Numbered from the stretch's first letter, positions 16,253-29,976 are shown. The stretch is DNA of 64,000 nt from an uncultured delta proteobacterium (GCA_963724765.1 CAVRVY010000002.1:1-64000); one strand, 5' to 3'. Numbers and translations are program-made. Notes: generated from the sequence alone by a model not told the origin.

Positions 16253-16635
16253 CCGAGGGAACCGCTGGCGCCCGGCAGGCTCTAAACGAGAATGGAGCGT
16301 CCTGTCTTTCCGAGGTGTTATCTATCCAGAGTGGCGCCTGGGCGATGTCCTGAAGGCTGTTGAGATTTGAGTGGCGGCATTCCTCGCCCGATCGGAAGAT
16401 CGGGGTGGGTGAGAGGAGGAGGCGCCATGAGCAAGAGGGCCAAGAGCAAGGATGGAAGGAAAGCCGCGAGGGAACAGCTGTTGCTGCACTCGCCGGGTGG
16501 TCCGCGAAGCATTGTACCACGCGTGATCGGAAGTGCTCCAGAGAACAGGCTTCTCATATCCCTGCCCGCCGATTCGGGCGGAGAATCCGATGGAGCTGCG
16601 CCAAGATGGCATCCGACTCTCTATAAGCTACCCGT

Positions 16636-18380
16636 TGAGTCCTCTGAGAAACTGGCAGGTTGCGGTCCGGCACTTGAGTTACTCATGCCTGCGTTTTTTT
16701 GGAGTCTCAATAATGTCAGGCCTAGTTCACGAAACCTTCTCGCTTGCGCCATTTCACGAGATTCTTTCGAGCAAAGAACGTGGGTATTTTGGCGATGCGT
16801 GCACGGATGGCCCGTGAGAACTTTCTCTGGGGTGCCCCGCGGATCCATGGCGAGCTTCGCATGCTCGGCTTCAGCGTGTCCCAAGCCACCGTGTCGCGCT
16901 ACCTGCCGCCGCCAAGCAGAAGGCCAAGACAGTCATGGCAGACCTTTTTTCGCAATCAATCGATCGCCTTCGGTCGCCACCAGGAACCAGGAGGAGCAAT
17001 CCGACACGGAGTCCCTGAGCCTGCGCATTTGGTCCAACTGGAGCAGGCTCATGCGATCGGCGAGGCAGATTGCGGTGGCGTTTGTTGGACCCTACCGGGG
17101 CCTTGGCCAACCACAGCCCATGTTGAACGCTCGAAAAATTAGTCCGCGATCCGCTCAGCGCCACGGCAGCGTGACGCGCGGAGCGTGTCGAGTCGCCTCA
17201 GCACCTGGCGGTTCAAGGAGAACGCTAGATAACTTTCCTGGTGCCGCTCTTCCGATACGAAGCGCGCCGCATGAAGCTCGGGCATCGCCGTGGCCCCAGC
17301 GGAGAACTCATGCCGACGCGCCGGAGGAGGTTTTGAGGAGCCACAACGGTCGCCAAGTACATGGTGCGAAGGCGAGGAACACCACCTTCTCAGAACTGGC
17401 GGACTTTCCTGCGCAATCAGGCTCAAGGTATCGCGGCCATCGACATGTTCGTCGTGGCGTCTGCATCGTTTCGGCTGCTCTACGTGATGATCATTCTGGC
17501 CCACGATCGCAGGAATATCGTACGCACCGCCGTCACCGAGCATCCGACCGCAGCCTGGCTCTCGCGCCAAGTAACCGAAGCGTTCCCGTGGGACACGGCT
17601 CCGCGCTACCTGCTGCGCGATCGCGACGGGTCGTATGGCGCGTACTTCCGCAACCGAGTCGAAGCGATGGGGATCACGGAGGTCATCACGGCGCCACGCT
17701 CACCCTGGCAGAACGCTTACGTCGAGCGCGTGATCGGTTCGATTCGTCGCGAGTGTTTGGATCACATCGTGATCTTCAACGAGCACCATCTGCGCCGCGT
17801 CCTGTCCTCGTACGTCGACTACTACCAACGCACCCGCACGCATCTTTCGCTCGACAAGGATTGCCCCGACTCCCGCCCGATCATGCCACGCAGGATCGGA
17901 AAGGTGATCGCCATCCCTCAGGTCGGCGGTCTGCATCACCGTTACGAACGTCTCGCCCCCTGATTCGGATCCGATTGCTGCTCATTCATCGTTGCGCCAC
18001 GGCCAGTATGCCGTCGGCTGATATTCACTGTATCGGAGACTTTGGGTCTCGATCAGGGGCCGACCGGTTTGCCGTCCTAATTGCAGGTCGTCTCACGTAA
18101 GCGCATTAATTCGATAGCAATTCTCGCGAGCTGTTCAAATCCCGGTTCCGATGGAGTTTTTGGTAGCGACAAGGGCGATCTTGAGCGGAAGCTCGAGAAT
18201 TACAAAGCCTATTACAACCAACACCGGTGTCACACCGGATTGGCCGGAGCTACGCCGGCTGAACGCTGTGGCGTACTCGCACAGCCAATCGCAAAACTTG
18301 AGTCATATACCTGGCGGCAACATTGCAATGGCTTATTTCAGACCCCAACTGCCGCCTGAATTGGAATTCGACACAGACAC
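16636..18380 (+). mobile_element. Nested remnants of three integrase-core (rve-type, IS481/IS3-like) insertion sequences
   Basis: Fragment MARENFLWGAPRIHGEL..SQATVSRY with right end ..GAGGTTTTGAGGAGCCACA (17345); fragment TVAKYM..AAIDMF..LLRDRD..SPWQNAYVERVIGSIRRECLD (17346-17963) with end GAGTTTTTGGTAGCGACA (18171); third tail DLERKL..YYNQHRCH..GLFQTP (to 18359). Confidence 0.8.
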
Positions 18381-18533
18381 CAAGCCAGGCGGGGGTCGAG
18401 CAGCGCTTTCGTAAGGTCGCCGGTTATCGAGATCTGCCGACGTAAGTTGCCGCACTGCGCGCGCATGATGCTGCAATCGATCGCGCGCGGAGTTGAACAC
18501 CGTGAGAGAGCAGCCTAAATGACTATCGAGTCG

Positions 18534-19298
18534 CTACTGAAGTTCAACAGCGGCTCGGGCATTCCCGTTTTCAAATTGGCCGCGGCTTGCAGGCGAATGT
18601 CCTTGCGCGAGAAAGCTCTCCAGCCGCTCGCGTCTGACGATCAACTGACGGCCATCGCGTACAATCAGGTGCTCGCGTTCGAGCAGCGCGAGATATTCGG
18701 TCACCCGCGGCCGGGAGGCGCCCACCAGTTCGGCCAGGTCCTTGTGCCGCGCCGGCACGGTCAGCCGCACGCCCTGCCGATCGGGAACGCCGAAGTTCTC
18801 GCTCAGCTCCAGCAGGATCAGCGCCACGCGTTCCTCCAGCGTGCAGCTCATGAAATTCGCGCAGCGCAATTGCACCAGGTCCCAGCGTCCCGAATAGCTG
18901 GCGGCCATGCGCTTGAAGTCTGCCGAGGCGATCCCCAAAGCGATTTCGATAAACGCTTCCAGAGCGACAGCTCCGATCTGGCAGTCGGTAACCGCCTCGC
19001 AGCGGAAGCTATACATGATCCCGGAAACCGGCGGAGGGAAGCCCGGAATCATGCCAGGCGCGACCATAATCACCAGCGTGCGATCGCCCTTGCGATTGCG
19101 GCACGTGATGCGCGCAACTCCTGACAGCAAGACAAACGCGGATTCGGGAGAATGCTCCTCATCGAAAATGATGCCGTGCTTCTCAACTCGGCTTATGGTC
19201 AGCGCATCGGCAAGTCTGTTCAGCTGGCGCGACGTGAGCCAGGAAATGTTCTTAAGTCCCCGTAATCTTCGAATTGCTGACACTCGCACGGCGCGCAT
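18534..19298 (-). CDS. Crp/Fnr-family transcriptional regulator (copy 1)
   Basis: CNBD-like N-terminus and TLEERVALILLELSENFG..HKDLAELVGASRPRVTEYL HTH. Confidence 0.9.
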   Translation of the reverse strand: MRAVRVSAIRRLRGLKNISWLTSRQLNRLADALTISRVEKHGIIFDEEHSPESAFVLLSGVARITCRNRKGDRTLVIMVAPGMIPGFPPPVSGIMYSFRCEAVTDCQIGAVALEAFIEIALGIASADFKRMAASYSGRWDLVQLRCANFMSCTLEERVALILLELSENFGVPDRQGVRLTVPARHKDLAELVGASRPRVTEYLALLEREHLIVRDGRQLIVRRERLESFLAQGHSPASRGQFENGNARAAVELQ

Positions 19299-19715: not shown

Positions 19716-20843
19716 CTACAGCAATGTACCGGGGCGGGTACGGTTCAGATGCGTATAGGCACGCTGCGTGGCAACGCGACCGCGCGCTGTGCGGGCAATG
19801 AACCCCTCCTGCAGGAGGTAGGGCTCGTAGACATCGCCAATCGTGTCGGATTCCTCGCCGACCGCGGCAGCCAGCGTATCGACTCCGACCGGACCGCCGT
19901 CGAACTTGTCGATTATCGCGGTCAGGATCGCGCGGTCCATCTTGTCGAAGCCACACGCATCGATCTCCAGCAGTTCCAGCGCGCCCAAGGCCACTTCGCG
20001 CGTCACTACCGACGCCTCATTGACCTGGGCGAAGTCCCGCACCCGCCGCAACAGACGATTTGCAATCCGTGGCGTGCCGCGCGAGCGCGCGGCCAGTTCG
20101 CCGGCGCCTTCGTCGTCAATACGGACGCCAAGGAGATGCGCCGAACGTTGGATGATTTCTGTCAGGTCGGTGCACGCATAAAAGTCCAGGTGATAGTGCT
20201 GGCCGAAACGGTCGCGCAGCGGAGAACTCAAGAGTCCCGAGCGCGTCGTTGCACCGATCATCGTAAAGGGTTTGACCGAAAGCTTCATCGTGCGCGCTCC
20301 CAGCCCGCTCCCGACAACAATATTGAGCTCGAAGTCCTCCATCGCGGGATAGAGGATCTCTTCGACCACCCGGGCCAGACGATGAATCTCGTCGATGAAG
20401 AGCACATCGCCCTGGTTGAGATCGCTGACGATTGCGGCAAGATCGCCCGCCCGTTCTATCGCCGGTCCCGAGGTTACGCGCAGGTTAACCCCGAGCTCAC
20501 GCGCAATGATATGGGCCAGCGATGTCTTACCGAGGCCCGGTGGAGCTGAGAACAAGACGTGGTCGAGAGCCTCGCCGCGTTGGCGCGCTGCCGCGATCGA
20601 CATCCCGAGAACTTTCTTGATGCGCTCCTGGCCCACGAATTCAGCAAGCGAATGCGGGCGTAACGAGTAGTCGAGTTGGCGATCCTCCTCGCTCGCGAGC
20701 GCGGGAGGAGGTGGCCCGTCGGCCTTGCGCGGGGTGCGGGACTGCCTGTGGGTCGCGCCTTGCGGCTCGGGCCCAGATATACCCGCACCAGCTTCAGCTA
20801 TGCGCGGGCTTTCCTTGTTCGCATTCCTATCTTTCACCGACAA
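19716..20843 (-). CDS. ruvB: Holliday junction branch migration helicase RuvB
   Basis: [69 protein letters not shown]. Confidence 0.97.
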
Positions 20844-21444
20844 TAATGGCGAGGGACTTGCGGATCAGGGTCTCCAGCCCATCGTTTTCATCAAAGCCAT
20901 CAACAGAATCGACCGCGCGCTTCGCCTCGGCAGGTTTGTAGCCGAGGTTGATCAGTGCCGACACCGCATCGTCCACCAACGAAACTTCAATAGCATGCCC
21001 GTTCGATGAAGCGGCAGTCACATGTTCTGGCATCAGGTTGAGCCCGCCAACTTTATCGCGCAATTCACGCACGATCCGTTCTGCGACTTTGGCGCCAACT
21101 CCGGGCACAGCATCGAGCCGTTCGACATCCTCATGCGTGATCGCAGCTACCAGATCCCGTGGTGAGAGTACGGACAGAACAGCGAGCGCGAGCTTGGAGC
21201 CGACGTGCTGCACGCCCATCAACAGATCGAACGCGTGCTTTTCCGCGACGGTCGCGAAGCCATAGAGCAGAATCGCGTCTTCGCGAACAATCTGGCGGAG
21301 CTCCAATTCGATTTCCGCACCGACCGACGGCATTCGGTAGTAGGTGCTCAACGGAACGAAGATTTCGTACCCCACGCCCGCGGTCTCGACGATCAGCCGT
21401 CCCGGCTCGCGCAGCTTTAGTTTGCCGCTCAGGGTGGCGATCAT
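20827..21444 (-). CDS. ruvA: Holliday junction DNA-binding protein RuvA
   Basis: [57 protein letters not shown]. Confidence 0.97.
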
Positions 21445-21907: not shown

Positions 21908-22312
21908 TCAGATCTTACCGGAGACGAGCGTAAACGCGATCAATATCAGCTTTGCATACGCCTCGTTCCAGGCCATAACCACTTTGAGAACGTCATTGAG
22001 GTCGCCTAGCGCCAGCACCCAGACCAGGAACGCGACGGTGGCGATGATCGCCTGCTTGTAGGCAGGTGGCTGCGCCGCCGTTTCGGTCTGCTTCAATGTC
22101 CACCAAAAGGTCAGCCCGAGGCCGACGACAAAACAGATCAGCAGAACCGTAACGTTTGGAATCCCGACCGCGCCTTTGACGATGGCGACCACCGCTGTCC
22201 AGGCGGCAATGACGTCGGCCGGAACATATTTGACGACGCGGTCGAGATATCCGTCGGCCTCTCCCCCACCTTGTGTTGATTGCAGTGCGAAATCCCGTAC
22301 ACGTCTCGGCAT
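21908..22312 (-). CDS. Small multi-pass membrane protein of unknown function
   Basis: 134 aa; DGYLDRVVKYVPADVIAAW followed by 3-4 hydrophobic segments; AAGGAGG RBS. Confidence 0.8.
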   Translation of the reverse strand: MPRRVRDFALQSTQGGGEADGYLDRVVKYVPADVIAAWTAVVAIVKGAVGIPNVTVLLICFVVGLGLTFWWTLKQTETAAQPPAYKQAIIATVAFLVWVLALGDLNDVLKVVMAWNEAYAKLILIAFTLVSGKI

Positions 22313-22337
22313 GGCACCCTCCTTGTGTTGATGATGA

Positions 22338-23479
22338 TTACGCGTCGAGGTACTTTCGAATTTGCCCGAAGATGGATTTCATCAGGATTCCCTCTCCCTT
22401 CGAACCCGCCCCGGCGTGATGCAGCGCGACGAGGTTCCAGTCTGTGTCGAAGCAGGGTGATCCGCTCGATCCACCTTTGTCGTATATTGAATCGTGACAA
22501 GCCCCGGATCGATCCAGGTGACGCCGCTGGTGTTGAGCGCAAGCTTCATTGGGCCACCTTCCGGATGCTGAAGGACGTAAAGCGGGTTTGTCTTCATCGG
22601 AGTGACGCCGAGGTTGGAAAAGGGCACGACATCCGCGGCAGCGGCGATGGAGTCGTCCGTGCGCAGCAATGCGAAATCGTGGCGTGCGCTACTCGCGACG
22701 ATCGGTTGATCCTTGTGGAGCCGAACTTCCTGGCCGGTGGCGGCGGGTCCTTCCGCAGTGAAGGCGCCAAATCGCAGGACAGTGTTCGACGCGTTTGCTG
22801 AAAGGACCTCGGGCTTCGCGTCCAGGGTCTGTCCCATCACGTGGTAATTAGTCAGCACGAGATCGCGGCCGATTAGCACGCCCGTACCCTTATCGATAAC
22901 GCCGACCTCTACACGGCAGACCGAGCGAGCTCGGTTCGCCGCCTTCATCACCAGTGCGACATCGAGCCATTCCGGCTCCGGCGTGAGCCAGCCCTGCAGC
23001 TCGAGCTGATTGGTCTCCCCGGCCCATTGAACGGGGGGACCGATCACGAGCGGAGCGAGTGCCGCATCGACCGGGGGCAGAGCCGCAATAGTACGCTCAG
23101 GAATCTGGTAGCGGGCCCCGAGATCGTCGAGCACGTCTTTGGATCGCACCAGCCGGTACGTGACGATCATGCTGGCGATAAAGGTCGCGTCCTCCAGCCC
23201 TGCCTCCGGGATCAATGGGAGGATGATAGAGCCAAGCGCCGCGTTCCGGTCTTTGGGATTGGTGCCGACCGCAATGGCAAAGTCCACGAGTCGGCGCGCA
23301 TTGTACTTGGGGTCTCCGACATATCCGGCAAGGCCCTTCATCTTGATGGCATCGCCGAAATTCGCCTGTTTCACGAGATTCTGGAAATATGGCGGCCCGT
23401 TAGGCGCCCCAGCCTCGGACCACCGCGCCAAGACGGAAACCAGCGCCTCCTTGTCATCGTGTGCTATCTCGAGGGGCAT
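22338..23479 (-). pseudogene. EAD-like domain plus trypsin-like serine protease, frameshifted near 22475
   Basis: GTGVLIG..VLTNYHV (His), HDFALL (Asp), LQHPEGGPMK; the catalytic GSSGSPCFDTDWNLVALHHAG lies in another frame ending at TAA 22338. Confidence 0.85.
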
Positions 23480-24319
23480 TCAGCAGCCTCCGGGCAATCT
23501 GGCTTTGGCGCCCTGAAGATCCTTCTCGCCATTGACGAGACTGTACTTGATGACGATGCGCGCAAGGGTCTCATCGGACGGGTTGCCGACGGAATCGAGG
23601 AGACCCAGGAGTAGCCAGCCGAGATACGTGTCACCATGGTGCTTGTGAGTGAAATCGTATCGGTTGCGCGCCACGAGGACATTCAGCAGATGCCACGCGT
23701 CGTCTCTGGCGTTGCCTGTCCACCCGGAACTGAATTGTGCCTTGAGTGGTTCGGGACAATCAGAGAGTTGAACCAGAGCGGGAAAGAAATTCTTGTCTAA
23801 TCCTGCCTCTGTGATGAAAATCTGGACGATTGCTTCAAGGTCAGCACGGTCCACATCCAATCGCAGCGCACGCGCTCCGACGGTAGGCTCGTTGTCCTTG
23901 AGAGGCGGGGGTGTCGGAGGAATGGCGAAAACTGTCTTGACTGGCGTCTGGCCACTAAATGCTTCTTCGATATCGCCCCATGGTACGAACATCCAAAAAT
24001 TTGTTTCCCGCTCTGACACTGACTGCAGAGTCATGCGATAGCCAATGGCCGCTCTATCGAGACCCTCAGAGATTATTCGGCCGTGGCGATCCCTTATGTT
24101 CGTGGTCGCCTGCATCAGGAATGCGATTGCGTCGGCCGTCTGCAGGACCCAACTCGGCAAATGCAACACGACGACTTCGACATCTTTTCCGATTGCGGCC
24201 GTGTAGGATCTCGTTTTTGCTTGGTTATACGGATCTTTCACGGAAGCACTAACAAGCTTGAAACCTATCGCATCGAAAAGTGGCTGTAGCTTGTCCACGA
24301 GCCGCGGCGGGATCGTCAT
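23480..24319 (-). CDS. Hypothetical protein with a C-terminal EAD-like domain homologous to the protease N-terminus
   Basis: The C-terminal ~110 aa after a PPTPPP linker align by eye with the protease N-terminus; stop codon abuts the protease ATG. Start is 24319 (ATG) or 24424 (GTG). Confidence 0.75.
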   Translation of the reverse strand: MTIPPRLVDKLQPLFDAIGFKLVSASVKDPYNQAKTRSYTAAIGKDVEVVVLHLPSWVLQTADAIAFLMQATTNIRDRHGRIISEGLDRAAIGYRMTLQSVSERETNFWMFVPWGDIEEAFSGQTPVKTVFAIPPTPPPLKDNEPTVGARALRLDVDRADLEAIVQIFITEAGLDKNFFPALVQLSDCPEPLKAQFSSGWTGNARDDAWHLLNVLVARNRYDFTHKHHGDTYLGWLLLGLLDSVGNPSDETLARIVIKYSLVNGEKDLQGAKARLPGGC

Positions 24320-24642
24320 ATCGTCAAGCGCGCTTAAGATGTCGTTTGACGTATTCGGCGGCTTGAATACGATCTGAAGGCCTTTGGAGAACAACGAAGC
24401 CAAGACGGGCGAGATGGTCGACACCGCGGTGTGTGTGGGTGGCGCGACTCGACGCCTTCGGCAACCTGTTCAATGTCGGCTTCGGACAGGGGTGCAATGC
24501 CTCCTTCACACGGGCAACCACTTCGCCCCTGTGCCGAATCCGAACGAGCTCTCCTTGAGCAACGATGCGCCGAATTTCCGACCTGTCCAACTGATCGGTA
24601 CAGTCACGCCAGTCCCGGTTCTCGCGGGACTCCACCGCGCTC

Positions 24643-24730
24643 ATGTCTGCTATCGGTTCTTTGCTGTCCTGCCGCTTCCGGAGCCGGGCGGACCCGGAAC
24701 TGGAAGTCGGCGCCCTTCGCCATCAGCTAC
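24643..24730 (+). mobile_element. 5' remnant of an integrase-core IS transposase
   Basis: RFRSRADPELEVGALRHQL, the same motif as at 21.7 kb and 39.4 kb. Confidence 0.55.
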
Positions 24731-24869
24731 TGTTGCCTCCGTTGCGGCAAGCGCCCGCAGCTGCAAATCCGCGTTCGTCGCGAGCCTCGTTCCGTTCGTG
24801 GGCTTTTCGGTGCAGTAGCACGTAGAGAAATAGACGACCGTCGTTGGAGGAGGATGCAGGGATGCGCGG

Positions 24870-25317: not shown

Positions 25318-26528
25318 ATGCTGATGTTCCGCGGGCAGGGTTCGGCAGCCGACGCGGCATCATGGATAGGCGCAGAGCACGACGGAAGCGGGCAGAAAGC
25401 GTTGCAAGCGGGCAGCGGTAAGCGCGGGCTCGGCTCGATCTTCAGGTCGAGCTACATCGACCGCAAGTCCGGCAAGCGCGTGACCGCCGAGACGTGGTCG
25501 ATCAGCTACTCGAACGCCGGGCTCCAATGCAGGGAATACGGATTCCCGTCGAAAGAGATGGCGCAGGCGATGCTCGAAAAGCGCATCGAGGAAGTGCGAA
25601 GCGGCAGGGCGCTGCCGGTGGAACTCAGGCGCATCACGCTGGCTGACCTGACCGCGTTGATCCTGACCGACTATGAGCAGAGCAATCGGCGGTCGGCGAA
25701 GCGCGTCCGCGAAGCCATTGCGCATCTGCACGCCCACTTCGACGACGGCAAATATCCAGTCACCGATCTCACCGGCAATCGGATCGCCGAATACGTAACC
25801 GACCGGCTCGCCTCGACGACGCGCTACAAACGGCGCCCGGCGAACGCAACCGTCAATCGCGAGTTGGCGGCGCTCAAGCGTGCATTTCATCTGGGCGCGA
25901 ACGCCGATCCGCCGCTGGTCGCGAAGGTGCCGAAGATCAAAATGCTCGGCGAGGCGAACGCGCGCAGCGGGTTCTTCGAGGTCCACGAGTTCAACCGCAT
26001 CGTCGCCGAACTGCCCGGTTTCCTACGCGCGCCGCTCGAAGTCGCCCGGATGACAGGGTGGCGCATCGCGTCGGAAGTGCTGACGCGCCGAGTGAAGCAT
26101 CTCGACCTCGCGAACGGTTGGTTGCGCCTCGATGGGAGTGAGAGCAAGAACGGCGAGGGCCGCGAGTTCCCGCTGACCCCGGCGCTGCGCGCGGTCTTGG
26201 TCGCCCAGCGCGAGCGCACGAAGGCACTCGAAAAGGAACGGGGCGAGATCATCCCGTGGTTGTTCCACGACGACAGCGGCAAGCAAATTGTTAGCTTCAG
26301 AACTGCATGGCTCGGCGCCTGCAAGCGTGCGGCATTCGGAAGCTGCCGCACGATCTCCGACGCACGGCGGTGCGCAACCTTGAACGCGCGGGCATCGCGA
26401 GGTCGGCGGCGATGCGCATGGTCGGGCACAAAACCGAAGCGATCTACCGGCGTTATTCAATCGTCGATGCGAAGGTGCTCGAAGAGGCGGCGGTCAAGTT
26501 GGCGGTGTTGCAAGCGGCTGAAGGATAG
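25318..26528 (+). pseudogene. Phage/island-type tyrosine recombinase with a single-base frameshift at about 26331
   Basis: ATVNRELAALKRAF, TGWR..E and SKNGEGR in one frame; PHDLRRTAVRNLERAG..GHKT..YRRY in the next. One extra G at GG 26331-26332 restores the frame. Start uncertain. Confidence 0.85.
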
Positions 26529-26651
26529 ACGCATCGGGCAGCCGGGCATCATGCCGGGCCGAATGTTGCAGGCGATTCGGATCGCGACAGAGGCACACTT
26601 GTCCTCTCGCAAAGAAACGGCGACCCGGTCATGTCTATGAGGGAATGACGA

Positions 26652-27467
26652 ATGCAGCACGAAGACGCTGTGGAGTTCCTGATTGAAAGACTCAAGGCGC
26701 AACCGAACGCTTTCAATTATGACCGCACGGAAATTGACGTGTACATCCCACGAGCCGTTTCAATCTTTCTCGCGGAGGAAAACGGAGACAGAGCGCTCTA
26801 CGACGTTGAGAGGTCTCGAAACGAAAAGTACTGGGATACGTGGACGGCATTTTACGATGCCGCATCTGAATTGTGTCGCCGAGGAATATTTCGACTGGGC
26901 AAAAAGCGCCCGATGGGGTCTGGCGCAGCAGCTCATGAGCTTGAGGAATGCTATTCGATCACCGTCGCGGGTCGCGACTGGCTGAAAAACTCGACGACGC
27001 GCTACGTCCCCACAGCGCCCGGTCGCTATCTAGAGTGCTTGAAAAACCCCGGCAAGGTTTTGGGTGCTGGGTTCTTGCAACGCGCCGGTGAGGCCGCAGG
27101 CTGCCACACCTATGAAAACCATCTTGCCTGCTGTGCGATGTGCGGTGCCGCAGCAGAATCCGCGCTTTTGGCGATTGCCACTGAAAAGACCGGCAATCGG
27201 GAATTGGTAGAAAAGGAATACAACAAACGCGATGGACGCCGGAACGTCACGAAATTGATCTTCGGCTCATTTCTGACATCGCGCCTCGCAAATGAGTTTG
27301 AAAGCGCCTTCAATCTCCTCACCTACTGGCGAGACGAGGCCGCGCATGGCGGCTCGTCCACGATCACGCAGGCTCAAGCCTACGACGCCTTGGATCGCCT
27401 TCTGCGACTGGCGTTCTTTGCTTGGGACAACTGGACTGAATTGACGGGAAAGGCGCGACCAGAATGA
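26652..27467 (+). CDS. Hypothetical protein with a HEPN-like RxxxxH motif
   Basis: ACCAMCGAAAESAL and LLTYWRDEAAHG (R-x4-H); wHTH-like N-terminus (ELCRRGIF..YSITVAG). Confidence 0.65.
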   Translation: MQHEDAVEFLIERLKAQPNAFNYDRTEIDVYIPRAVSIFLAEENGDRALYDVERSRNEKYWDTWTAFYDAASELCRRGIFRLGKKRPMGSGAAAHELEECYSITVAGRDWLKNSTTRYVPTAPGRYLECLKNPGKVLGAGFLQRAGEAAGCHTYENHLACCAMCGAAAESALLAIATEKTGNRELVEKEYNKRDGRRNVTKLIFGSFLTSRLANEFESAFNLLTYWRDEAAHGGSSTITQAQAYDALDRLLRLAFFAWDNWTELTGKARPE

Positions 27468-27940
27468 GACCTCAGTCTCACTGGAACGAAATCCGAAGGT
27501 TTTGCTGGAAGCACTTCGCATCCGATTGGAAAAGGGCGAACCATTACCTTCGGAAGACCGACCGATTCTATTCACGGCTCATTGCTGAAGTTGAGAAGAA
27601 GCCGGGACATCACGACGAAGCAGCAAACCTTTACAGCGAATGGCATACGGTGCGTGAACCCGAGCAGTACGAGGTTGATCGTCTTCTAACCCTCTATTAC
27701 CTGCGGCGCGCCGCGCGTCATCACCTACCACAGCCCGACGATTACGATTCCCGATACTGGCAGAAAGACGAGTTCAGAGGCGTTTCGCGCCTCACCGATG
27801 CCGGAATCGATTTCATCGACCGCGCCCTTTATGAGAGACGGAAGCGCCGCTTGGAGATTTGGGTACCGTTGATTGCGGCCCTAGCTGGCGTAGTCGCTGC
27901 TGCTGCCGGACTCGCTGCTATCCTGTTAAGTCACCGCTGA
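27464..27940 (+). CDS. Hypothetical protein with a C-terminal transmembrane helix
   Basis: ATGA overlap with the upstream gene; LTDAG..RRKRRLE followed by IWVPLIAALAGVVAAAAGLAAILL. Confidence 0.65.
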   Translation: MRPQSHWNEIRRFCWKHFASDWKRANHYLRKTDRFYSRLIAEVEKKPGHHDEAANLYSEWHTVREPEQYEVDRLLTLYYLRRAARHHLPQPDDYDSRYWQKDEFRGVSRLTDAGIDFIDRALYERRKRRLEIWVPLIAALAGVVAAAAGLAAILLSHR

Positions 27941-28152: not shown

Positions 28153-29865
28153 TTAAGCATTCGCAGCCTTTGCTTTTACAGTGTTTGTGAACAATTCGAC
28201 GCGAATGTTGTCTCGATTGAAATTTCCGTCAGCAGCCTCATCGATTATATTGACACTTCGCTCGATTAGATCCAACGTCTTATCGTTGTCCCAAAGTATA
28301 TCCAGCAAGACCGCACAGTAGCGCGCCATCTCATGCGAATTGAAGAAACGCGGCAGCGGCTGCGGATTGCCTAATAGCCGCATCGCCAACAAAAAGTGAT
28401 AACGAGCGACCTTAAGTTGCGGCTCTAACTGCCCAATCCGAAACAACGATTCTAGCGAATAGAACGCAAAGGCCGACACATAATACGGTTCTAGCCGATG
28501 CTCTTCGCCAAATATCTCTGTTCCAACCTTGGCTTTTAAAGCCGCATAGTTTCGCGTTGTTCTATGCGGTTCGCCCAAAAACATAGCCGCAAATGAACGG
28601 ATTACATTACCGGGGGATATGATGCGCGTCTTGTCGATAGACGCAACACTAGCAAATTGGCGTGTTCTTCTTTCATAAAACAGAGTGTTTTCCTTTTCCT
28701 TCGGAAAAGCCTGAAAGAATGCCTCTAGCTTTTTTGAGAAATCGGTAAACGCCAGAAACTGTTCGTCCGTTACCTGTGTCTGTCGATTCGTAGCCCTTAT
28801 AATCGAGTTAATTACATCCTCGTCTTGCGTGCTAATCAAACGGACTGGGATGGCAACAGACTCGTCAACTAGTTGCTGATTATCAAATAGCACGTGACTT
28901 GTTTGACAGCCATTTACTATTTGAAAATCTTCAATGTGGATTCGATTCCCTACTGTGCGCAGTGTGCGAGCGATGATTGTAACGCCATTATTCATCAGCA
29001 CAAAGCGGTCTTTGAAACTGGATTCTAGCGTTGATTTAATCTCATTGTTTACCTCCGCATCGTATTCTAACCAGTCCCGGACGTTATCATAGAAAATGCT
29101 CTTGATAATCTGTCCATCTTCGTCTCGCAAGAGTTTGAGAAATTCCTGCGCTGGCAAGATGCCAAGATGGGCCTCGGCAACTCCTGCTACTGACGGTACT
29201 ACTGCACGACCCACGAACAGAAAATCCTTTTGGACTGCATTTTTCGTTTGATTGTAGAGTTTTTGGACTGCTCCCGCGTCTATAGGCGAGAAGGTTACGT
29301 CCCGAAACAGCCCTCTTATCTTCAAGTCGCCGACAGCGGTTCTTATGCGGCCTTCGAGGTCAGCATCGCCAACCCATCTACCAGTGGTTACATAATAAAG
29401 GCGGCATAGAGGATTGCCGCGGCGAAACTTGCCGCTCTTGTTATAGACTGCATCCATAATCGCGGCTGCATCAGCGATGCCTTGATTGCGACGGAGGGTT
29501 GGTTCTGGATTGAAGAAGTCCTTCACGCCGTATCCGAAGTCGTTCATCTTACCGCCGTCGAATGACGCGCCTCGGTCAGCTTGTACAAAAATGAAAGTTA
29601 CTTCTAGGGTGTCACTCGACGCCGCGATTTCTTCAAAAGCTTCGACGTCTGTGATGAGAGATTCATTTACGATTATGGCGATGGCGTCTATTGCCGTATC
29701 GCCGCCTTTGCCGACAACTACATCAGCTGTGTTGAAGGTTTTGGTATAGTAACGACTGATCGTGATGTAAGCAGCAAAATGTTCAAACTGCTCGTTCTGA
29801 TCAAGTTTACTTAGTCCAAAACTTTGGCAAAACTCTTCCAACAATGATTCTGTAATTCGGTCCAT
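28153..29865 (-). CDS. AIPR (abortive infection phage resistance) family protein
   Basis: GGDTAIDAIAI, SIFYDNVRDWL, FVLMNNGVTII, FQIVNGCQTS, IIRATNRQT, YERR; AAGGAG RBS; AT-rich. Confidence 0.9.
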   Translation of the reverse strand: MDRITESLLEEFCQSFGLSKLDQNEQFEHFAAYITISRYYTKTFNTADVVVGKGGDTAIDAIAIIVNESLITDVEAFEEIAASSDTLEVTFIFVQADRGASFDGGKMNDFGYGVKDFFNPEPTLRRNQGIADAAAIMDAVYNKSGKFRRGNPLCRLYYVTTGRWVGDADLEGRIRTAVGDLKIRGLFRDVTFSPIDAGAVQKLYNQTKNAVQKDFLFVGRAVVPSVAGVAEAHLGILPAQEFLKLLRDEDGQIIKSIFYDNVRDWLEYDAEVNNEIKSTLESSFKDRFVLMNNGVTIIARTLRTVGNRIHIEDFQIVNGCQTSHVLFDNQQLVDESVAIPVRLISTQDEDVINSIIRATNRQTQVTDEQFLAFTDFSKKLEAFFQAFPKEKENTLFYERRTRQFASVASIDKTRIISPGNVIRSFAAMFLGEPHRTTRNYAALKAKVGTEIFGEEHRLEPYYVSAFAFYSLESLFRIGQLEPQLKVARYHFLLAMRLLGNPQPLPRFFNSHEMARYCAVLLDILWDNDKTLDLIERSVNIIDEAADGNFNRDNIRVELFTNTVKAKAANA

Positions 29866-29976
29866 AAACCGCTCCTTGCGAGCGGTTCGACCAGCACTTC
29901 GACCGATCCCGCCGCCAATGGGGTCTAGTCGCATTGTTTACACCCTCCGTATTGGTCCGTCGAGCATATTAATGCC

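Follow-up and report, generated by a model that had tools for sequence, protein, structure and literature searches.

A decayed three-gene cassette joining EAD8-type adaptor domains, a trypsin-like protease and a small membrane protein in an uncultured delta proteobacterium: a candidate protease-gated defence module

Here, we describe a cassette of three tightly linked and co-oriented genes, A, B and C, on the minus strand of a 64,000-nucleotide (nt) stretch of DNA from an uncultured delta proteobacterium (GCA_963724765.1 CAVRVY010000002.1:1-64000; below, the window). With slightly better than even confidence, we read it as a decayed three-gene module of the abortive-infection type, coupled through effector-associated domains (EADs) of the EAD8 type, in which a protease gated a membrane effector. 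Gene A (main open reading frame (ORF) 23480-24424, 314 amino acids (aa) from a GTG) encodes an N-terminal constant domain, a disordered linker and a C-terminal EAD8-like domain. Gene B (22338-23479), an EAD8 domain joined to a trypsin-like serine protease, is frameshifted and a pseudogene as encoded, and gene C (21908-22312) is intact and encodes a 134-aa, probably four-helix membrane protein. The open frame of B is 22382-23479, its ATG following at the base right after the stop of A, and C starts about 25 nt past the true stop of B. A sequence-only reading of the window had proposed three tightly linked minus-strand genes; this layout is confirmed, and all peptides quoted in it were located in our translations. 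Beyond the window, C is tightly coupled, across phyla, to serine proteases of two unrelated folds.

The coupling of C to proteases was assessed in 99 loci, comprising 20 genomic and 78 metagenomic loci that were fetched with a C alignment, plus the window. C lies beside a same-strand serine protease in 80 of them: a trypsin-like gene is placed directly upstream of C, with gaps of 8-337 nt, in 51 loci, and an S8 subtilase directly downstream, with gaps of 5-100 nt, in 29. Neither protease adjoins C in 10 loci with adequate flanks, three of which have an EAD8-trypsin gene 1,044 nt downstream, and the flanks of nine further loci were too short to judge the context. Some loci are duplicated between the two collections (L001/L027, L002/L032 and L043/L044), so the counts are of loci and not of independent events. 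Co-occurrence of the membrane gene with proteases had been set beforehand as a test of the sequence-only reading, and the outcome does not refute that reading. The pattern spans Alphaproteobacteria, Bradyrhizobium, Chloroflexota (Promineifilum and relatives) and a metagenome-assembled genome of Rhodothermales, and the C family is found in 4 of 401 genomes of the phylum (the host genome itself and 3 of an even sample of 400 others). The C-linked subtilases examined have no signal-peptide-like N-terminus, with D/H/S motifs in 4/4 examined, and the C proteins next to subtilases start with M-x-R-R-(I/V) and keep the motif D-x-Y-F-D-K-V-V-K-Y-I-P-A-D. An apparent fusion of the membrane domain to a subtilase in L059 was rejected as an artefact of an overlapping wrong-frame ORF, the locus holding two separate adjacent genes. 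As a separate observation, the C and subtilase pairs of L052, L055-L058, L061 and L070 adjoin a divergently oriented gene for an AMIN-like protein (Pfam) and are also near a gene for an N-acetylmuramoyl-L-alanine amidase/Golvesin_C protein.

The pair of EAD8-protease and C is constant and its partner varies, with at least six partner types. These are the A family (L001/L027, L028, L043/L044, L092, L097 and the window); an EAD7+EAD8 adaptor in Chloroflexota (the gene upstream of L013:6619-7866); 570-656-aa proteins with a C-terminal EAD8 (L030 and L047); an EAD8-VMAP-C protein with a MoxR-type ATPase and a vWA/Endonuclease_1/FGE-sulfatase protein (L080); an NB-ARC STAND protein with EAD1-TIR and EAD1-EAD8-trypsin (L041); and, in L024, a CHAT-EAD8-trypsin protein that stands after a PAS/GAF protein. 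In L002/L032 and L030, C is followed by an alpha/beta-hydrolase gene. A four-gene form is present in L043, L097 and L092, where A is preceded by a gene of ~390-410 aa (cluster c18) that is also seen as a partial ORF in L028. The c18 protein belongs to no Pfam or NCBIfam family and has no profile similarity to A, its structural leads in the ESM Atlas pointing to families of the restriction-endonuclease (REase) type, all of them sub-threshold; the gene was not found in the present genome with the query used.

Within the cassette, A and B are joined by a domain that occurs once in each, at the C-terminus of A (23495-23863, aa ~188-310) and at the N-terminus of B (23105-23479, aa 1-125). BLASTP alone detects the likeness weakly (E 0.004, 22% identity). 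Comparison by hhalign of an A C-terminal profile of 15 sequences with a protease N-terminal profile of 20 sequences, both built from database homologues and fetched loci, gave a probability of 99.3% (E 8.4e-21, 117 columns), and all controls (the N-terminal domain of A, five column-shuffled profiles and one reversed profile) remained at a probability of at most 0.4% and an E of at least 0.13. Further, the entire genome (5.4 Mb, assembly 97% complete) was searched in all six frames, giving 61,157 frames of at least 50 aa, and the hidden Markov model (HMM) of each domain found only itself and its partner, with E-values of 7.9e-8 and 1.7e-13. The Pfam EAD8 model found only B genome-wide, and neither it nor our own HMMs revealed another EAD8-bearing core in the six-frame search, so the EAD8 pair appears self-contained. 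The shared domain that the sequence-only reading had aligned is therefore borne out by the profile comparison and its clean controls.

The same reading had guessed EAD8 as the identity of this domain, and the guess holds. The N-terminus of B scores 13.2 bits (E 0.15) and 16.2 bits against Pfam EAD8 (PF19961), below the gathering score of 27 bits, with the 13.2-bit alignment running end to end (model positions 2-96 of 96). Pfam EAD8 does not match the window's A, and matches 1 of 10 A-family members at E 0.01. The orthologue of B in Chloroflexota (L013:6619-7866) carries an EAD8 of 57.9 bits at residues 8-109, the same position as in B, and the EAD8 of L041, at 32.9 bits, is also above the Pfam cut-off. 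Since the protease profile includes bona fide EAD8 domains of the L013 type, the copies in A and B are EAD8 by profile, and on this transitive and profile evidence the shared domain of ~120 aa is classed as a divergent EAD8. The layout also follows the EAD principle as given in section 30 of Kaur, Burroughs, Iyer & Aravind (eLife 2020, PMC7159879), whereby one copy resides on the terminus of a core component and a second is fused to an effector or signalling domain in an adjacent gene: here, one copy is on the non-effector A and the other on the trypsin effector B next to it.

In the AlphaFold2 model of A, built from 13 sequences (mean predicted local distance difference test score, pLDDT, 80.8), two domains are well modelled (~22-169 and ~188-310), and pLDDT falls below 50 at residues 1-21 and 170-187, the latter forming an 18-residue disordered linker. 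The EAD8 domain of ~120 aa is modelled with seven helices between residues 193 and 307 at a pLDDT of mostly 82-94, and it thus has the small, non-enzymatic, alpha-helical character that is general to EADs. In VIA-align, its best-scoring match was the CARD of Apaf-1 (Z 7.0), followed by many CARD, Death domain (DD) and Pyrin domain (PYD) rows at Z 5.5-6.8; among the best 50 rows, those of the C-terminal domain are mostly CARD, DD or PYD at Z 5.5-7.0; below about Z 13, a similar arrangement of helices can by itself make helical bundles match. The model is thus suggestive of a Death-like fold for EAD8. A complex prediction for A residues 186-314 with B residues 1-130 scored 0.00, run without controls, and speaks neither for nor against binding.

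The N-terminal alpha/beta domain of A (23918-24361, aa ~22-169) has no Pfam, NCBIfam or PADLOC match. Its model probably adopts a REase-like fold: an exhaustive VIA-align search returned AF1548 (1y88) with the middling score of Z 8.6 (root-mean-square deviation 2.9, 110 residues aligned), the nuclease domains of Cdn1 (Z 7.3), VC1899 (7.1) and Can2 (6.5 and 6.3), and also Bax1, FokI, NucS and several type II enzymes, this run of REase-fold matches extending over Z 5.6-7.3. Foldseek found no match for the A model in the PDB at an E of 1e-3 or better, and the A profile found nothing meaningful among PDB sequences. The canonical D...(D/E)xK motif is not conserved in alignments of the domain, in which D64 is invariant, E83 varies and no lysine follows; R116, S119 and W149 are further conserved residues.

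A profile of this N-terminal domain alone was compared with 1.84 billion representatives and recovered 149 representative clusters at E <=1e-3, 55 of them at <=1e-10, most being 320-350 aa long and starting with this domain. Pfam annotation of 110 relatives identified TIR_2 in 23, EAD8 in 18 (best match E 4.8e-16), EAD1 in six, Trypsin_2 in four, SEFIR in three and DUF4062 in two, besides single kinase-type matches, and our own EAD8 HMMs detected an EAD8-like C-terminus in 77 of 146 relatives. In ten mapped examples, the domain occupies residues ~1-195 and the effector lies behind it. Two proteins, P0075 (618 aa) and P0107 (595 aa), combine the domain, EAD8 and Trypsin_2 in a single chain, equivalent to a fused A and B, and tie A functionally to a protease of the B type. 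An invariably N-terminal domain followed by TIR, SEFIR, EAD1, EAD8 or trypsin is what marks out a constant module for sensing or regulation with interchangeable effectors, and the N-terminal domain of A has the pattern of such a module, as judged from architecture. Its distribution is sporadic, with an occurrence in 1 of 401 genomes of the phylum, that is, in the host genome and in none of the 400 others sampled evenly.

The sequence-only reading had also described the product of C as a 134-aa membrane protein with a flexible N-terminal leader, and its AlphaFold2 model (pLDDT 74) agrees with this, showing a disordered tail at residues 1-27 (pLDDT <50), a short helix at 22-28 and four long hydrophobic helices at 32-47, 53-75, 85-102 and 117-133. 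We therefore take C to be, as modelled, a four-helix inner-membrane protein with a cytosolic tail. The tail is conserved, starting with M-x-R-R and carrying a D-x-Y-x-D-(K/R)-V-V-K-Y-V-P-A-D motif before the first long helix, and the residues M1, R3, R4, D20, D24, K28, V30, P31, D33, A37, W38 and T39 are invariant in 34 aligned homologues. A word-indexed search returned 58 close homologues, none with a precomputed Pfam family; a few bear a source name such as 'FtsH-binding integral membrane protein'. C itself has no match above noise in Pfam, NCBIfam or PADLOC. At permissive Pfam limits (E 1 for the window's C, E 10 for the 34 homologues), weak and scattered matches to unrelated membrane families appeared, and Trypco, EACC1 and gasdermin were absent from the 25 families listed of the 35 matched by the 34 homologues. 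A comparison of the C model with viral structures yielded nothing, and the ESM Atlas returned only unnamed clusters at 0.90-0.92.

Gene B encodes the trypsin-like protease that had been proposed, with a Trypsin_2 match (PF13365) of 48.1 bits against a cut-off of 27.6 (E 2.6e-12, aa 198-350), but as encoded it is broken. The part of the domain upstream of the break (22476-22888) holds the catalytic His213 and Asp268 in frame, and a 7-nt deletion site at 22472-22476 directly precedes the GGSSGSP catalytic-serine motif. The remainder (22338-22471), which reads GGSSGSPCFDTDWNLVALHHAG... and ends at the true stop, is out of frame, matches Trypsin_2 at E 4.3e-4 and is 86% identical to L023 over 44 aa. 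Homologues of B read IQYTTKVAGGSSGSPCF in one frame, whereas in the window 'IQYTTKV' and GGSSGSPCFDTDWNLVALHHAG are encoded in different frames, and DNA alignment with the intact L023, L021 and L092 places a clean 7-nt deletion before the catalytic-serine codons. The three residues of the triad are consequently not in one frame, the GSSGSP serine being separated from His213 and Asp268. Of 26 members of the B family, 25 carry the conserved His and Asp and 24-25 keep the triad, the exceptions including the window's broken copy. As the serine is not in frame with the rest of the triad, the gene as it stands cannot yield an active protease, and the operon is a relic.

A second lesion affects the N-terminus of A. 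A detached piece, LSEADIEQVAEGVES (24445-24489, minus strand), preceded by a Shine-Dalgarno-like AAGGAGG string, lies upstream of the GTG in another frame than the main ORF, which reads APPTHTAVSTISPVLASLFSK... in the next frame; in the A homologues P0002-P0010 the corresponding 'LSxADIxQVAEGLxSAP' is fused in frame at the N-terminus. The N-terminus of A was apparently broken by a 1-nt loss near 24445. Contigs from public runs bear on both lesions: record 6 of X1 (24289-24488) and record 26 of X5 (24304-24477) span the A site with zero differences and reach at least 31 nt on both sides of it, record 14 of X2 covers it too, and record 19 of X3 (22256-22494) matches the B deletion exactly, reaching only ~18-22 nt past the site. 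Exact matches in short contigs from public runs of different studies indicate that the lesions are not assembly errors. No intact allele was present among the covering contigs, each run leaving parts uncovered, so its absence is not shown. The need for a repaired operon, to which the sequence-only reading had alluded, is hence real, and at two places.

Against homologues, the pairwise ratio of nonsynonymous to synonymous substitution rates is 0.10-0.15 in C, 0.14-0.17 in the part of B before the break and 0.22 in A. It follows that the inactivation is recent when set against the divergence of the sequences. The module is presumably non-functional in this organism, and the window's copy records the loss of a suicide module in which the catalytic serine went first and the membrane gene is still intact. 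PADLOC returned nothing for A or C and, for B, only a 9.7-bit Avs1b fragment, and NCBIfam matched none of the three proteins.

For the intact form of the cassette, we infer that A senses, that its EAD8 binds that of B, and that C is then cleaved, with membrane damage and defence as the result. The N-terminal domain of A, probably REase-like in fold and connected to the EAD8 adaptor by the flexible linker, would probably sense an invader-derived signal, and signal-bound A would cluster. The EAD8 domains of A and B could then associate homotypically, as CARD and Death domains do, and the protease of B would be activated by proximity. B would clip C, most likely in the cytosolic tail, and clipping would convert C from a latent membrane protein into a membrane-damaging effector, so that the infected cell is killed or arrested. 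A wider proposal, to which we give somewhat less than even weight, holds that C represents a new class of protease-gated effector, pre-inserted and alpha-helical, with a tail that is clipped by serine proteases of two unrelated folds so that the membrane is opened or destabilised, and that the N-terminal domain of A is an unnamed constant component for invader sensing which signals either directly via fused TIR or SEFIR domains or, via the Death-like EAD8, to a protease.

Several observations weigh against an immune module with C as its executioner. No known pore-former or toxin is detectably similar to C, and the fold matches of its model are generic helical bundles, all below Z 8. The D-x-Y-x-D and M-x-R-R elements, being common to the copies linked to both protease types, may be structural and not a cleavage site. 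C has no adjacent protease in 10 adequately flanked loci, and in L009, L011 and L012 of the Chloroflexota it persists in the synteny block of its relatives although the EAD8-protease gene and that of the EAD7/EAD8 adaptor are missing. A role of C that is independent of the protease is hence possible, and the membrane gene can evidently survive the loss of its protease, the window being another such case. The N-terminal domain of A has no recognisable catalytic or ligand motif, which makes 'sensor' an argument from architecture only, and intact operons elsewhere adjoin housekeeping genes and not defence islands. Additionally, the adjacent EAD8 copies, at 22% identity, are not mutual closest relatives (A is 69% identical to the A of L092, and B 74% to its B), contrary to what Kaur 2020 (PMC7159879) describes for adjacent EADs, although this is a tendency and not a requirement.

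Some of these points would suit a different role of C, namely that of an anchor, scaffold or inhibitor of the protease, with other cellular or phage proteins as the lethal or regulatory substrates. Whereas the pro-toxins Pepco and EACC1 are soluble, C already is an integral membrane protein; of the 90 adequately flanked loci, 10 keep it with no protease beside it; and tail motifs that are common to trypsin-linked and subtilase-linked copies are as expected of a docking element. We nevertheless regard this role as unlikely, since two structurally unrelated protease families would need the same anchor, no need for membrane targeting is evident from the sequences of the B proteases and the subtilases, and the 'protease + small partner' logic has so far (bioRxiv 10.1101/2025.11.14.688446) been one of protease-activated effectors. 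It is quite unlikely, in our view, that A is itself an effector, a REase-fold nuclease carrying EAD8 that is activated by a cut in its linker or is recruited, together with the protease, to a core elsewhere. The REase-fold matches of the N-terminal domain and the presence of a disordered linker of 18 residues (170-187) agree with such a role, as does the listing of REase domains among EAD-linked effectors in Kaur 2021 (PMC8195603). Against it, A has no canonical (D/E)xK, E83 being unconserved and without a lysine after it; the N-terminal domain, being fused to effectors of the TIR, SEFIR and trypsin kinds, behaves like a constant module for sensing or regulation and not like a second effector; and the 97%-complete genome has no other EAD8-bearing core to which A and B could be recruited.

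The cassette might also have no immune function and instead serve regulated proteolysis or the processing of membrane proteins, in signalling or quality control, with adaptors of the EAD type. The genes flanking the operons of L092, L097 and L001 are metabolic and transport genes, subtilase-linked copies of C are near cell-wall amidase and AMIN-domain genes, and no PADLOC model matches A, B or C. We find this very improbable, because partners such as EAD8, TIR, SEFIR, VMAP/MoxR, NB-ARC and CHAT are hallmarks of conflict systems, the distribution is sporadic (1/401 sampled genomes of the phylum for the N-terminal domain and 4/401 for C), the window's cassette is near an integrase-like and an AbiU-like gene, and it decayed readily in this genome.

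The local setting of the cassette differs between its two sides. Downstream of C are RuvA (20827-21444) and RuvB (19716-20843), and on the other side, beyond A, there are a repeat of ~230 bp, a tyrosine-integrase-like gene and the AbiU-like gene. The repeat (24541-24770), directly upstream of A, is 89% identical to 270722-270946 of contig C1, another contig of the genome, with a further 57-bp match on contig C3, and public-run contigs over 24541-24662 depart from the window's sequence on both sides of it; it is probably a small repeat or the end of a mobile element that displaced the original upstream region of the operon. The ORF 25318-26640 (plus strand), presumably a tyrosine integrase by its motifs, appears to be frameshifted like A and B, its C-terminal part (HDLRRTAVRNLERAGI, GHKTEAIYRRYSI) going on in another frame at 26307-26528 (plus strand). 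Between it and the AbiU-like gene, two plus-strand ORFs of 271 aa (26652-27467) and 158 aa (27464-27940) overlap by 4 nt and have no significant PADLOC or NCBIfam family; the shorter has a hydrophobic segment at its C-terminus, and the two may form another small pair of the defence or toxin-antitoxin kind. A second defence gene near the cassette is indicated by the 593-aa protein at 28153-29934 (minus strand), which PADLOC matches to AbiU nearly end to end (E 1.2e-120), with a weak NCBIfam match to AIPR/MzaE, and which lies in a stretch of low GC content (0.48 versus ~0.60 around it).

Further away, many ORFs overlap in a tangle across 16367-18414, and some, such as those at 17361-17963 and 18081-18359 with the string '...YNQHRCHTGL...', we presume to be fragments of transposase or integrase-core type; the region looks like decayed insertion sequences beside the gene at 18534-19298 (minus strand), presumably a Crp/Fnr-like regulator. 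Searches for markers of an integration site found no tRNA and no Rfam family, and none of the window's flanking ORFs encodes a nucleoside triphosphatase (NTPase) core (MoxR, STAND) with a vWA, VMAP or iSTAND partner. Taken together, the repeat, the frameshifted integrase-like gene, the small ORFs without a family, the AbiU-like gene and the low GC content fit a horizontally acquired defence locus that is now eroding.

Both EAD8-trypsin coupling and protease-gated effectors are already known, and the cassette is best placed by comparison with such systems. As in the EAD8-coupled trypsin effectors treated in PMC7159879 and PMC8195603, the adaptor occurs twice in adjacent genes, the second copy N-terminal to a trypsin-like peptidase, and the same pair of EAD8-trypsin and C is found inside canonical VMAP/MoxR/vWA (L080) and STAND (L041) systems. 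In contrast to those effectors, the trypsin of the window is not accompanied by an NTPase, vWA or STAND core; its partner is a domain of ~190 aa that is unannotated and probably of REase fold. The EAD8 copies of the window are ancient paralogues (22% identity) and not recent duplicates, scoring below the Pfam threshold. The difference from the vWA-MoxR ternary and STAND-NTPase systems is likewise the missing core, which L080 and L041 possess beside the homologous protease and C. Without an NTPase, the cassette would be a minimal system for studying how EAD adaptors, Death-like as modelled, switch on a protease.

The pairing of a protease with an effector is coming to be seen as one of the main design principles in prokaryotic immunity; the families that have been characterised to date are either soluble enzymes or pro-toxins of a beta-rich kind. 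According to Evans et al. (bioRxiv 10.1101/2025.11.14.688446), Pepco (Trypco1/Trypco2) and EACC1 are small, protease-linked latent pore-formers that are released by cleavage, and the protease-effector pairs (Pepco, EACC1, MBL and alpha/beta-hydrolase) recombine with diverse sensors. With these and bacterial gasdermin, C has in common that it is a small protein without an assigned family beside a defence-associated protease; as in the modules of the Pepco/EACC1 type, the pair is kept and the sensors are swapped, more than one protease class being used. Adjacency to a defence-type protease with varying sensors, a trait of Pepco and EACC1, is seen for C in 80 of 99 loci. Pepco and EACC1 are described there as beta-rich soluble pro-toxins, whereas C is predicted to be an alpha-helical integral membrane protein with four hydrophobic helices, and the likely regulatory element of C would be its N-terminal tail, cleavage of C being proposed by analogy. 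The C family, a widespread family of small helical membrane proteins, is a candidate new latent effector whose geometry of activation would be different. The literature searched contains neither a four-helix membrane family as a protease partner nor a REase-fold constant domain heading TIR, SEFIR, EAD or trypsin proteins, although the supplementary tables of Kaur 2020/2021 and Evans 2025 may list them.

A comparison can also be made with single-protein TIR/SEFIR defence proteins (ThsB-like TIR and bSEFIR), as the C-terminal TIR or SEFIR domains in relatives of the N-terminal domain of A match PADLOC models. The ThsB and bSEFIR models align to the TIR/SEFIR part (residues ~195-375) and not to the N-terminal domain, and the window's A has EAD8 in place of the enzyme. 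The module of ~150 aa, probably of REase fold, that heads TIR, SEFIR, EAD and protease proteins is a candidate new sensor, and both building blocks, this module and C, are directly testable with intact homologues.

Finally, the cassette shares with the inflammasome and apoptosome an adaptor on the sensor, a matching one on the protease and a membrane-acting protein downstream, the roles of sensor and membrane-acting protein being the putative ones of A and C. The EAD8 model of A compares with the CARDs of Apaf-1, caspase-1, CARD9 and NLRC4 and with Death and Pyrin domains at Z 5.5-7.0, the chance range for helical bundles. The likeness is at the level of fold only, the protease is a serine protease and C is unrelated to gasdermin. 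If the wider proposal on C and the N-terminal domain of A is true, the full cassette would be a minimal, NTPase-free bacterial analogue of sensor-CARD-caspase-gasdermin signalling.

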